Positions 35,501 through 41,500 of a stretch of DNA of 64,000 nucleotides are shown piece by piece. Source of the DNA: a virus (taxonomy: Duplodnaviria > Heunggongvirae > Uroviricota > Caudoviricetes); IMG/VR virus record IMGVR_UViG_2974549561_000001, positions 39,446-103,445 of that record. One strand, given 5' to 3'. Made by a program: the position numbers. The first letter of the stretch is position 1, and every line of letters starts with the position of its first letter.

Positions 35501-38500
35501 ACCTGGGTCGGAGTCAACATCCACAGGGCATACTTTTGCACGCATCGGCGCGGCGCGTTCTTCCATCATCTGAACATATGCTGTAGCGCGATCGTCATAC
35601 GGGCGAATATCCGCCTCTTTCAGAGGTCCGCTATCCTGCGGAGTAGCCTTCATCTTATTTATTGATATGCGGCAGACTTCTTCCGGCATCAGGTGCATCA
35701 TGTTGCGCATGAAAGCCCACCAGCACAGCTCCTGAATACTTAAATCATGGCTATTTGAAAGGCCCATTTCCTGACGGGCGACATCCAGTATCCAGTTAAC
35801 GCGATTATTGTGCAGCGTTTCTTTCAGCTCATTAAAACCACGCATCCGGTAATGGTTATCGTGATGCCAGCACAACAACACCGCGCTATTGTCTCGTTCA
35901 GCGTGGACAATATGGTTGTCACACCAACTACGATCTGCGGCCTGGCATTGACCCTCTTTCCTACGCAACCACGCCACCAGCGCGTCAATTCCACCAATAC
36001 GGCGAAACAGTTCATCGCTGTTAAAAAACGGCTGCAACGCCTCATTTGTTGCCATGGTTTGCTCGGTAACAACGAGGCCGTCTTCCATGTGCTCGATTAA
36101 CTCACGCGGCACCGGCTCCATGATAAATTTACGGCCAGCCTCCACCAGTTTTCTGACCTCCTGATCCACTTTGAACGTGGCGAGGCCAAGCTCTTTCTGT
36201 ACAAAGGGAGTAATTACGGCTTTCATATCACACCTTTAATCACTGATTGGGCTTTATCTGCTGCCCGGCATTCTCTGTTTAAGCACAACCATTTCCTGAC
36301 GGCATAACACAGCAATAGCGGTCCTGACTCCAATTTGCTTACCAACCAGGTATTGCTTTACCTTGCGGCGACTCACGCCATCAAGAAGCATCTTTAACGC
36401 TTCAAGGGACAATTTGTTGTATTTGCGTGCCATTAATCTACTCCGCAGAACCATACAATCTACGTAACGTGTCGGCGACAGAAGATACAGATATCTCGCC
36501 AGTCGCAGCGCCTACAGTAAGGTCTGCCAGTTCAGGTGAATCAAATACCTGCACCCCGTTACGGCGTAGAAATAGCAGCGCACTGTTTAGCGCGGTACGC
36601 TTATTGGCATCATTGAATATATGCCCTCTCGCTGTAGCCACCAGGTAGGTGGCGGAGACTTCGAAAAGGTCGGTGATCTCTTCGTAGGCAACTCTGGCCT
36701 GAACTCTCCCGATAATGGCCTCTGCCCTACCCGGATCAGACATTCCCGGCAGGCCGCCGTAGCGGCTTATATTCGCATCATGAAGCGCAATAAGTTCTTC
36801 CGGTGATATATGCCTCATTATCGGTTAACCAGTTCCTTGTTGGTGGAGTCCAGGGTGTCAAACAGGGATGCAAATTCAGCATCCAGCGCCGCTTTTTTGT
36901 AGGCTTCGAAAGTAGCCTTGCTGACAATTACTGCTGGCTCACGGCCTCTGCGGGTGATTTCAACCTCTTCCCCGGCTTCAACATTGTTGAGCACTTCAGA
37001 AAGGTTGCCACGCGCGGTACGGAAGTTAATGGATTGCATAAACACCTCGTGTACTCGTTATGTGTACACAATTATAAACTTCACAGGCATAAAGCACCAG
37101 CACTTTGCAGCTTAAATAACCGGACAATCATCAAATTCCCCACTTCGGGCATCATTGATGACATGAGTGATCACACCAAAAACAGCATTACTGCCCGTGT
37201 ATCCATCGTCATCTACTGGTAACGCCTCTTTCTTCCCGGTGCTTAAATCCTCCAGGTGCTGGCGCGGATACTTCCTGTATCTCTTTATGCGATATTCACC
37301 CTCCATAGCGCACACAAGCAGAGAACCATCAACCGGAGTAAGCGAGGAATCAACCACCAGCAAAGCACCCTGCAATATTCCCTCACGGTGATGGCTATCA
37401 GCTGCCCGCATGAAGTAGGTTGCTGATGGATGCCTGATTAGTTGCTGATCAAGAGAAATTCGGCTTTCAACATAATCCGCCGCAGGAGAAGGGAAGCCCA
37501 TAGCGTTTTCACCTCAATAATACTGTTCATTTATACAGTATACATTAAAGAGACACCTTTGGTGCAAACGCGTTACGTACATCAACCACCGCTGATGATT
37601 TTGTGCTCTTTGCTACTATTCATCACCAACGGATCAGCGTAACCTCGTTGCCAATCAGTTAATAAGGAATTAGCTATGCCTAATCGCATTCCTCTCGATC
37701 CTGTATTGCCCAAAAATTTTGACTGCACTCCTAACGAGAAACGCTCTAAAGCTCAGCTGGACGCCTGGTGGGACCATCCATATGGGGTTACACAACCTGA
37801 CGGGAAAATTGTAGTTTATTGTCTGAATGGTGGGGCGTGGGACCGTCCATCCGTGCTTTGTTTGGCAGATAACTATGATGAAGCCTGTGAACTTGCCGAA
37901 AGACAGCAGGCAAGCTGGGTAAAAACACGGTCTGAACCGACATTCATGTTTTCAAAAGAACCGCCATTTATACTGGCGAGGATGCCGCAGCGACCGGATC
38001 ATCAACAAGAAATTGTTGCTGAATTTTCCTCAAGGGATGAGATAAATCTCTTCTCATTAAAGCAGGAAGAAAGGGATCGCGTCGAAGTGTCTCCAACTCT
38101 CGACCACAACCGGATGAACCTGGCCCAGCTCGCCTGGTACAGCAAAGAATTAGAGATGTCTATTGCCCGGCTTGAAAACGAAAAAGCCGCTATCCAAGTC
38201 CAGCACGAAGTAGTTCTGAACCGGATTAGAGAAATGCAAAACGATAACAGGGGATTTTGAATGGCTAAAATCGAGTACCATCGTGATCGCGGTAATTACC
38301 TGGAAATATACGATCATGAATCTCTTAACGATATCAACGATGCGTTATATGAATACTGTGAAAAAACGAGCATCACAGATGCACCTGATGCATTTGTCGA
38401 GCTGCCGGTATATCTCCGCGACATCTATGCAATACGAACACCGCCCGTATCGGTGATTCACATTGGCTATGTCCGCCTGTCCATCGAAGAAGATGAAGAT

Positions 38501-41500
38501 CGTTATATCGTGCGCCACTATACATTGGACAGAAAAGAACTTCCTAATGAATGGAACATGAGTAATTTCTACAACGGTGAATATGGCTTAAAATCCGCTA
38601 ATAATTTACGGTCATAATCTATACAGGCATGTATAACAACAACGAGCCTATTAGCTGTCAACAACGTTATTTCCTCAAATAAGAAAAAGCAGAAAACAAA
38701 TTGTTTAAGGTCACAAATTGTGGCCTTGATGGAGGAGGGAGGCTTATTGGCTATGGCTAAAAATCAAATTAGACACTTCATGTTGCTGTAGCTCATCAAG
38801 ATCCGAGGCCACAAAACCTTTTCCGAAAAACTTCACAAGTAACTCACTAGCCGCATCATTGTCACCTATTACACGAAAGTCATACGGCAACGTCGCAAGT
38901 TGACGATGTAATCCTGCTGAGAAAGTCGAATCTAACAGCACCCAGAATTCCCACCGCAGGATAATACTCGCCTCTTAATACTGTATATATGTTGTTACGA
39001 TATGTTTTTCTGTCTCTAAAAAAAGATGTTAATAGAATGCTAACCATTGAAGGGGATAGAAATATACAATTCCAACAAACGTTATTTTTAACAATTTTTT
39101 TCTTTGCGTTGACTTTCCCGGACACCTTGTCTGACCGAAGGTGCGCGAAAGCCACTTTTTCCTTCCTGAGTTATCCACAAAGTTATGCACTTGCAAGAGG
39201 GCCATTTTCTACATATTGTGGTGGCTAACAGATGAAATGAATGTAGATTAATTGAAGATAAGGAGAAAATTTGAGATGCAATCATGACGTTAATAGATAG
39301 GGTCTGCATTACAGACCCCACCCGCATCAAGGAATTAGCCGTTCCCTGATGTTTTTCCGAAAACATGTGCCGTAAGCTCACGTTAACGACTTTCATTCAC
39401 CGAATCCAACTATATAGGGGTTGGGTTTCTACGTCAACGTGAGCAAGTGCACCTTTACATTTGACAAGGAACCACCTGAATGAACGCTTTTTTTCAGTTC
39501 CTGAGTGCATTTTTAGATGCGCCTATTATTAGCCAGATTCTGGCTATTATCCTCATCATCGTTTTGATTTTGCTTTTAAGGTCAGTAAAAAATGGAATTA
39601 TGCACTGGCTTACTTAATGTTTCAGTGAAACATTAAAATCTCCTTGATGTGGAAACAATCATTTTCTGTATGTGCTGGTGGGCACCTGTAGTTCAGCTTT
39701 CGTTGGCATTTAACTTCGTCTTTGCTTTCTCCACCAGCAACTTCCAGATGCCTATTTCATTAGCAGCCGCCTTGATGGCGGCATAAAAAGCATCTTGCTG
39801 ATCGTAACGCTGGATCTGTTTTTTCAGTTTTGCCTCCACCAATTTAATTTCATTACGTGCTTTCTGAAGCCGCATCACCGCCCGGTTACGTCTGTTCTTG
39901 TATAGCGTGTTAATCTCTGACAATTGCTTTAATTTACCAGCCTGACTGCGGATTATCGCCTCCCTGGCTTCTGCCGTGCGTCTCATCTGATCTCTTAAGA
40001 GTTCACCGTTTTCGATAATTCTTTCAAGGTGTTTGATGTGATCTGCAACTCTCATACTTCACCCTCGCTTGTATCACCAGCGTCCACCAACGACAATAAA
40101 GCCATGGCCATCTTATGAACCAACAGTGCATCAATAATGCCAAGCGTATGCCCCGGCTTAATGTTTAATGCTGCCTCAAGATGACACCTTTCCAGACCGC
40201 TTTTCTCGGCTTGTTTATGATGATATGGCGTAATAACGTCGCCCAAAACACGGCTAATTCTTTCTCGTAATTGCTGGGTGCCAGCACACTTGATCGCTGT
40301 ATCGTGGAGACGGTTAACCAGTTCGCGATAAACATGCGGCTTAATGCGGATACGTTCACCGGTGACGCCCTTTCCTGGCGCTGGCACCGAACTATCCGGA
40401 ATATCCGGATAGTTGCCAGCCTCGTAAGCTACCCGCAGCCAGTGCATGAATGTTTCAGTGGACACACAACCACAGTCCACATCGATTTTCCCGCGTTGCT
40501 GTTCCAGCCATTGCCCAAAATCCAACCTGTAAGTCTTACTTTCAAGTTCATCACCATTGAACTCGACTTTCTGCGACGCTATGAGAGCTGATTCGTATTG
40601 TTCGCGAGTGACAACTGACTGGTATTCATCGCTATCAAGGTCACCAATTGGAAGCTCAATATCACAACAAAAATTGCGCCCAAAGAAAGTGTCTTTTTTG
40701 TGGTCTGAGCCAAAAGCAAAAGTCGCGCATGGTGCCATTAAATTGACACTGGGTAGGTAACAATAACTCATTCCATCAGGCCACCCGCCGCACTTAGGCA
40801 GCTCCTTCACTAACAAGTCGATAAACTTCATTTTTTTATCATCTTTGCAAGCCGCCAAAACCATTTGGGCAAGTGCCAATACTTCATCTGCCGTATATCC
40901 AGCACCGTGACCATACATTTCGATACGGGAAATAATCTCTGATATACGCTCTTCAGTGATTCTGGTCATTTCTTTTTGCGCCATTTCTTTTCACATTCCT
41001 TAGTCCATTTTTCAATGTTCATTTTGGCAATATCAGTCATTCCATCACCTAAGAAATACTTTCTCCGGTACGTCTTGCACTTAAACCACACTACAACAGC
41101 CACCAGCCAGAAAATAAAAGGCCATACAGCAATACCAACGACAGCCGCGATAAAGCCCAATAGCCATAAATGAAGCTCTCCAACTTCTGTTTCCGGCAAT
41201 ATTCTTAAAGAATTAAACAGCAGGCTGAACGAATGGTCGTATGCATTGGCAGTATAAGACATGCAATCCATATAATTAAAGTCATAGCCTGCGGCTGCCG
41301 CCCATAATGGGCGGTCAAGAAAATGTTTTAGTGTCATCATATAAATTTAAGGTTCAGACCAGTTATCTTCAATAGCAATGCTTAATCTTTGTAGCCATTC
41401 TGCTAATTTCAGCATTGCTTCTCTTTCGCTTAAACCACGAGGAAAATCATCAAGCGAAATTGTTGGCTTGAAGCCACCGTAATTATCCATTTCAACAGTC

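Follow-up and report, generated by a model that had tools for sequence, protein, structure and literature searches.

A LexA box between humD and lxr in a P7-like phage-plasmid, and the protein family of Lxr

Does a LexA box that lies between two divergent transcription units of a phage-plasmid serve one of them or both, and what do the genes on its less familiar side do? We address this question for a 64,000-nucleotide (nt) stretch of a Caudoviricetes genome (IMG/VR record IMGVR_UViG_2974549561_000001, positions 39,446 to 103,445), hereafter the window, in which the box TACTGTTCATTTATACAGTA (37521-37540) sits in a 174-nt gap (37502-37675) between humD and the divergent gene lxr. On the minus strand, humD (37112..37501) encodes a UmuD'-like S24 protein of 129 amino acids (aa), assigned from its open reading frame (ORF), a Peptidase_S24 match (E 5.7e-9) and the HumD annotation of P1 and P7. 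On the plus strand, lxr (37676..38260; Lxr in P1, Upf94.2 in P7) encodes 194 aa behind the Shine-Dalgarno sequence AAGGA (37664-37668), and upf93.6 (38261..38617; Upf93.6 in P7) encodes 118 aa behind GGGGA (38250-38254); the TGA stop of lxr directly abuts the ATG of upf93.6 (TGAATG). A preliminary description of the window, made from the sequence alone, had placed a perfect CTGT-N8-ACAG box in a 174-bp gap between humD and a plus-strand pair of 194 and 118 aa, coupled via TGAATG and running opposite to its neighbours. The box and ORF coordinates given here agree with that description throughout, and the genes around the pair are all on the minus strand, with doc, phd and humD on one side and pmgV/pmgT-like genes on the other.

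An annotated LexA box between humD and lxr

As judged from its sequence and conservation, the box is very likely a real LexA operator for humD. With the box defined as a 16-mer palindrome CTGT-N8-ACAG inside the 20-mer TACTGT(AT)4ACAGTA, 17 of the 20 letters of TACTGTTCATTTATACAGTA, among them all 12 outer ones, agree with the palindromic consensus TACTGTATATATATACAGTA. When up to one mismatch is allowed, TACTGT-N8-ACAGTA occurs a single time in the 64 kb, whereas shuffled sequences give an expectation of 0.05 and only 4 of 100 shuffles contain at least one match. To assess conservation, we surveyed 64 IMG/VR loci that hold Lxr relatives and counted the box where the available sequence spans both humD and lxr; CTGT-N8-ACAG is kept ~153 nt upstream of lxr in every such P1-like locus. 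Among 20 distinct versions of the intergenic region aligned from related elements, none of the eight arm positions varies, compared with five of the eight centre positions (Fisher p = 0.026). Invariant arms around a variable centre are the sequence pattern expected of a working LexA operator. The whole 174-nt control region, including the long lxr leader, is conserved together across the P1-like loci, and the copy in the window is ~99% identical to those of P1 and P7. A search for an RNA element in the 135-nt lxr leader or nearby returned no Rfam match at E <= 1, with a fold z-score of -1.36.

The looser motif CTGT-N8-ACAG has three matches in the window against 0.51 expected. The second, AACTGTATGGATTTACAGGT (30221-30236), lies between cra/cre and loxP (30268-30301) and corresponds to the second annotated LexA site of P1 (AF234172 46-65), which overlaps promoter P2coi beside loxP (PMC4713147). 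The third, CTGTCGCGGCTAACAG (60856-60871), has a GC-rich centre and is probably a chance match.

Judged by sequence identity, the humD–lxr operator is an already known, annotated feature of P1/P7-type phage-plasmids. In the P1 record, the site (AF234172 87545-87564) carries the label "LexA binding site in the regulatory region of lxr and humD", and the gene on the plus strand is entered as lxr with the description "LexA regulated function"; the P7 record assigns the box to "regulation of humD expression" and calls the plus-strand genes upf94.2 and upf93.6. As a finding in its own right, the box adds nothing to these GenBank annotations, which mark it and name lxr. The P1 genome paper reportedly dates from 2004, and more than 20 years on we found neither a functional study of the Lxr family nor evidence for LexA regulation of lxr in the accessible literature.

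The surrounding sequence identifies the window as a P7-like punavirus phage-plasmid. The 3-kb stretch around the box shares 99.4% identity with a Punavirus P1 isolate and 99.2% with P7, the gene order is the same, and the alignment with classical P1 covers 69% of this stretch. Over its 194 aa, Lxr is 93% identical to P1 Lxr and 99% identical to P7 Upf94.2, and it matches phrog_6164 along residues 1-194 of 194 (E 3.5e-135). Its gene also shares their synteny, being divergent across the LexA site from humD, phd (36818-37039) and doc (36438-36818), the latter two following humD on the minus strand. Upf93.6 is identical to its P7 namesake at 117 of 118 positions and matches phrog_5797 (E 3.8e-77), and its gene directly follows upf94.2 in P7 and MH422554 alike. 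Given this homology of Lxr to P1 and of Upf93.6 to P7, which by the preliminary description's own standard counts against its reading, the pair is not a novel or foreign module.

Possible reach of the operator towards lxr

The explanation that we favour as a whole, with moderate confidence, is an SOS-controlled divergent region in which LexA acts on humD and, with about even odds, also on lxr–upf93.6. In undamaged cells, one LexA dimer would occupy the 20-bp operator and block the humD promoter, and the same bound LexA would probably limit a weak, back-to-back rightward promoter into lxr–upf93.6. Upon DNA damage, RecA-stimulated cleavage of LexA would free the region and HumD, a ready-made UmuD' analogue, would be produced; if the lxr promoter is LexA-limited as well, Lxr and the translationally coupled Upf93.6 would also be made after damage.

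From the end of the box to the ATG, the distance is 19 nt on the humD side and 135 nt on the lxr side. Because the box ends so close to the humD start codon, the humD promoter must overlap or immediately precede it. A position-weight-matrix scan returned two minus-strand candidates that overlap the box, TTGCAC-19-TATACT (37567 to 37537) and ATGTAT-17-TATTAT (37545 to 37517), with scores of 7.4 and 7.7; the best scores of random windows have a median of 6.6 and a 90th percentile of 9.1, so that both candidates are suggestive but short of significance. On the plus strand, the same scan gave a weak candidate lxr promoter, TTCACC-18-TATACA (37508..37537; score 6.2), whose -10 element falls inside the box, and an alternative, CTGATG-16-TACTAT (37592-37619; score 5.4), which is clear of it.

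From the geometry of the region and the P1 annotation, the chance that bound LexA also limits lxr–upf93.6 appears to be even or very slightly better. Several observations weigh against such dual control. Neither plus-strand candidate scores above the random-window median, and a consensus scan of the 174-nt gap found no plus-strand promoter; with the candidate at 37592-37619 as the promoter, the box would fall near -96, a position from which LexA would not repress. The Lxr homologues examined outside the humD-adjacent arrangement, including diverged lxr–upf93.6 pairs, have no LexA box, and SOS control is therefore not intrinsic to the Lxr family. In the accessible literature we found no lxr expression data, and the gene is mentioned only in P1 gene lists. 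Finally, in the P1 record the predicted sigma-70 promoter PhumD lies within lxr coding sequence and not at the box. This annotation (4080-4106 of the P1 locus in our set, L002) corresponds to ~37979-38005 of the window, which is past the LexA box as seen from humD and ~480 nt upstream of that gene; PhumD in this position agrees poorly with simple operator occlusion, and the candidates that overlap the box offer alternatives.

Most of these points fit a reading in which the box is an operator for humD only, lxr–upf93.6 is transcribed from a separate downstream promoter (for instance that at 37592-37619) or expressed constitutively at a low level, and the designation "LexA regulated function" was a guess from position. 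We consider this reading a serious contender, at somewhat less than even chances. The unequal distances to the two start codons favour it, as do the weakness of the plus-strand promoter candidates, one of them clear of the box, and the lack of a box at the diverged lxr–upf93.6 pairs and at all short homologues examined. A diverged locus, L065, points the same way: here the humD-like gene has been relocated downstream of lxr, and a one-mismatch box, CACTGGTCATATGTACAGTA, accompanies humD, leaving lxr without one. On the other side, divergent gene pairs with a shared LexA box do exist, E. coli uvrA–ssb among them; one candidate lxr -10 element is inside the box; and the whole intergenic region, lxr leader included, has been conserved as a unit in P1-like loci.

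In L065, the shortened humD-like gene (4603-4932, minus strand; 109 aa) retains the same MGFPSPAADYVE start and lies immediately downstream of the lxr homologue in convergent orientation. Its box is found at ~4940-4960, and a 229-aa ORF adjoins the humD-like gene on the same strand.

Lxr and Upf93.6 as accessory proteins

Both lxr and upf93.6 are real genes under purifying selection, each preceded by a good Shine-Dalgarno sequence; in informative comparisons, dN/dS (the ratio of nonsynonymous to synonymous substitution rates) is 0.22-0.30 for lxr and 0.22-0.40 for upf93.6. The profile searches that had been proposed for the two proteins matched only PHROGs families of "unknown function", with nothing significant in Pfam or NCBIfam, and single-sequence and profile searches against the PDB yielded nothing below E 0.06. 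The earlier remark that the pair carries no recognised motif thus stands with respect to Pfam, NCBIfam and PADLOC, although both proteins are identifiable as P1 Lxr and P7 Upf93.6.

The AlphaFold2 (AF2) model of Lxr (mean predicted local distance difference test score, pLDDT, 87.5) comprises a beta/alpha domain from residue 1 to ~133 and one long helix at residues 149-192 (38120-38251). The N-terminal 130 residues form a small beta-beta-beta-alpha-beta(-beta-alpha) domain, hereafter Lxr-N, whereas the C-terminal helix carries a heptad series that can be read from the sequence (L152-L159-L166-I173-V180-M187) and is a leucine zipper. Since the N-terminal domain is fused to a leucine-zipper helix, P1-type Lxr is most likely a dimer. 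Accordingly modelled, P1-type Lxr consists of the family domain with an added C-terminal zipper, an architecture that is new to this work.

Lxr-N represents, by sequence, a large family on proteobacterial conjugative plasmids, integrative and conjugative elements (ICEs) and phage-plasmids that has no Pfam or NCBIfam model and is likewise newly described here. Among 1.84 billion representatives, a profile search with the domain recovered 463 clusters (50% identity), and 235 of these had E < 1e-10. Close homologues of ~130-135 aa, with 50-60% identity to Lxr, occur in Salmonella, Klebsiella, Pseudomonas, Xanthomonas, Burkholderia and Bradyrhizobium, and the invariant residues of the family cluster in the motifs LDxWWD.P, CLNGG..DR and QRPD. 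Many homologues are called "DNA-binding protein" by NCBI, a name that no current NCBIfam model backs. A genome scan located 58 Lxr-N loci in Alpha-, Beta- and Gammaproteobacteria, with a TraG/VirD4 coupling protein as a neighbour in 22, DUF736 in ~17 and a WGR protein in ~16; the loci with these neighbours are conjugative plasmids and ICEs. Other settings include a PromA-like plasmid operon (67 aa, Lxr-N and a resolvase), Klebsiella phage-plasmids in which Lxr-N lies between gp32/RecA/exonuclease genes and DnaE genes, a Salmonella plasmid in which it lies 4 kb from umuC and Tus, and a plasmid stretch with many small ORFs in succession. Across the contexts examined, no partner gene is conserved. 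As the domain is common on proteobacterial conjugative and phage-plasmid elements and lacks a family model, establishing what P1 Lxr does would provide an annotation for hundreds of mobile-element genes.

Many Lxr-N members (P0141, P0146, P0153, P0175 and others) have a 50-aa N-terminal helical extension with a motif resembling KR.AK...H..ALE..AR.AG..SWH, which gives a weak, sub-threshold match to positions ~7-58 of Pfam Glyoxalase_8; P0153 additionally carries a motif of the ParE antitoxin PaaA2 (E 6e-8). We considered such fused domains as a guide to the function of Lxr, but a sub-threshold Glyoxalase_8 match and a single PaaA2 motif are insufficient for this purpose. Within Lxr itself, residues 27-32 (QLDAWW; 37754-37771) belong to a near-invariant QLDxWW motif, which forms a short helix of a well-folded region in the model. 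The motif resembles the beta-clamp-binding pentapeptide QL[SD]LF, and such a position is not typical of clamp-binding tails.

Lxr is an accessory protein and not a structural phage protein. The gene is truncated by an insertion sequence (IS) in some elements, and it is non-essential for P1 lytic growth as measured by CRISPR interference (CRISPRi; PMC10695390). A candidate short Lxr allele kept under the same box in locus L073 was discarded, being in fact P1 lxr truncated by an IS.

The lxr gene also contains the target of an E. coli CRISPR spacer. The 32-nt type I-E spacer GGTAAAAACACGGTCTGAACCGACATTCATGT matches positions 37918-37949, inside lxr (codons ~81-92), at 32 of 32 positions; inspection of one array (NZ_AP022222.1) showed it at the iap-proximal end of the cas2–iap array, as the last spacer. 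It matches ~1018 chromosomal places in 5426 complete E. coli genomes, and all of those sampled represent the same 33-nt CRISPR match. The protospacer adjacent motif (PAM) in the window is CTG. Variants with the canonical ATG PAM, P1 among them, each have 2-5 protospacer mismatches that include seed position 4, and none of the loci examined combines a canonical PAM with a perfect match to GGTAAAAACACGGTCTGAACCGACATTCATGT, which, on sequence grounds, looks like a signature of escape. E. coli spacers often target P1-like elements (PMC10910852).

Upf93.6 is an optional, Enterobacterales-restricted add-on gene and not a required partner of lxr. The protein models poorly (pLDDT 67.7) and has no informative structural neighbour, and a search of 5.8 billion proteins returned 32 cluster representatives, the named sources of which are all Enterobacterales except for one metagenome bin. 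Downstream of lxr, the P1-like IMG/VR loci carry upf93.6 only in 25 cases (including the window type), upf93.6 together with hot in 7, hot only in 7 (the P1 type) and neither in ~13, so that lxr occurs without upf93.6 in P1 and ~20 IMG/VR loci. Conversely, homologues of upf93.6 occur without lxr and then come after unrelated genes: in Salmonella plasmids an 81-aa and 320-aa gene pair next to ccdAB, and in Yersinia an Mrr_cat gene. The pair is nevertheless found in another lineage (L066, L067 and L069), at 68% and 58% identity, and its recurrence in a diverged lineage indicates that the linkage is more than accidental. By sequence, the pairing of lxr and upf93.6 is thus recurrent and not obligatory, which has not been described before this work.

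Several of these contexts show gene decay. In a Salmonella plasmid contig of ~94.7 kb with ccdAB (L148), the upf93.6 homologue (3930-4273) is stopped after codon 9 and called as a 90-aa remnant, and the 320-aa gene upstream is deleted down to its last codons, which brings a KfrA_N gene next to the upf93.6 homologue. A relationship of a KfrA-like head with a coiled-coil partner was accordingly rejected: the adjacency in pSLT-like plasmids is a deletion artefact, the upf93.6 copy has an in-frame stop, and neither Lxr nor Upf93.6 has a Pfam match to KfrA_N (BLASTP against a KfrA_N protein, E = 13). In the window, a 65-aa ORF (38744-38941, minus strand) is what remains of the C-terminal part of a 183-aa gene; P1-like loci lacking both upf93.6 and hot have this gene intact, in convergent orientation to lxr (for example, L048 4643-5194). 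A decayed gene therefore lies downstream of upf93.6. In L066 (5598-5613) and L067 (5580-5595), a perfect SOS box (TACTGTGTTTTTATACAGTA in L067) precedes a ~92-aa orphan gene convergent to the box-less pair. The locus falls in a region of P1-like elements reported to be highly variable (PMC9603915), and this region seems, from its sequences, to collect LexA-controlled accessory genes.

The preliminary description had proposed an SOS-induced accessory or defence function for the pair. The first part is in line with the P1 annotators, who made the same proposal in naming lxr, whereas the second finds no support. Were lxr–upf93.6 an SOS-triggered defence, abortive-infection or toxin–antitoxin pair, one might point to two small, abutting, coupled genes near the phd–doc addiction module in a variable region, to the HEPN/Toprim gene near Lxr homologues in Klebsiella phage-plasmids, to the Mrr_cat, PLDc_2 and HEPN genes that adjoin the upf93.6 homologue in Yersinia, and to the one family member with a PaaA2 antitoxin motif. 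We nonetheless regard this as very improbable. Neither protein matched any PADLOC 2.0 family, even at E up to 1, neither showed homology to a known toxin or antitoxin family, and a conserved neighbour gene is lacking for most Lxr-N homologues. Co-occurrence of the two genes is not obligate, as the layouts above and the upf93.6 homologues without lxr illustrate, some elements have an IS-truncated lxr and show no sign of linked rescue, and in pSLT-like plasmids the copy of upf93.6 is interrupted by a stop codon. The non-obligate pairing, the truncated alleles and the dispensability of lxr therefore speak against the pair being an obligate toxin–antitoxin module or a two-component defence system.

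Possible functions of Lxr and related systems

What Lxr does can be proposed only tentatively. It may bind DNA, or else a conserved component of host replication or repair, and thereby aid the element through damage or establishment, in which case it would work together with HumD and, in P1, with the theta homologue Hot, both encoded next to it. The 50-60% identity maintained across Alpha-, Beta- and Gammaproteobacteria suggests, at the level of sequence, a conserved host target. Counting against this proposal, the Lxr homologues have a replication/repair neighbourhood in only some contexts, and Lxr has no Pfam, NCBIfam or PDB sequence match. A more specific version, in which P1-type Lxr would be a novel type of SOS-deployed host-manipulation factor directed at the replisome, at RecA/LexA signalling or at a defence system, with Upf93.6 as a lineage-specific modifier, is more doubtful still.

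By analogy, Lxr could also be a regulator or cofactor of the SOS response or of translesion synthesis, similar to Acinetobacter DdrR, or a PsiB-type damper of RecA/LexA signalling. Such a role fits the position of lxr, which a shared SOS box separates from a divergent umuD homologue, and in L065 lxr again adjoins a humD-like gene, in a different arrangement; the Salmonella homologue near umuC and the many homologues in conjugative-element regions with establishment-type genes can be read in the same way. However, most Lxr homologues have neither umuD nor umuC nearby, HumD is missing the N-terminal portion by which UmuDAb represses, and no likeness of Lxr to DdrR or PsiB was seen, although no comparison aimed at either was made. 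We therefore think this role unlikely. The precedent itself has been described: in Acinetobacter, DdrR is encoded divergently from the umuD homologue umuDAb and helps UmuDAb to bind the SOS box (PMC11332147, PMC7273328).

Among known systems, the closest are the P1 (AF234172/NC_005856) and P7 (AF503408) loci themselves, which share with the window the same 20-bp box with humD–phd–doc on one side and lxr on the other. P1 differs from the window and from P7 in having hot, on the opposite strand, in place of upf93.6, and the P1 and P7 types of lxr diverge within the last ~15 codons; P7 differs from the window in an IS903 downstream. For the protein, small beta-sheet-plus-helix folds such as the HicB N-terminal/UPF0150 fold (TTHA0281) and the AP2/integrase arm-binding fold are among the closest systems that can be named.

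For the regulatory arrangement, two systems stand out. The divergent E. coli genes uvrA and ssb share one LexA box, and control of both arms has been demonstrated experimentally. Similar to humD–lxr, a single SOS box in a short divergent gap could gate both directions; unlike uvrA–ssb, the humD–lxr case is known from geometry alone, and its box is strongly asymmetric with respect to the two start codons. The Acinetobacter umuDAb–ddrR region resembles humD–lxr in that a umuD-family gene and a small gene, whose function was not known at first, diverge from a shared DNA-damage operator. There, however, the repressor is UmuDAb itself and not LexA, whereas HumD is UmuD'-like and has no known repressor role.

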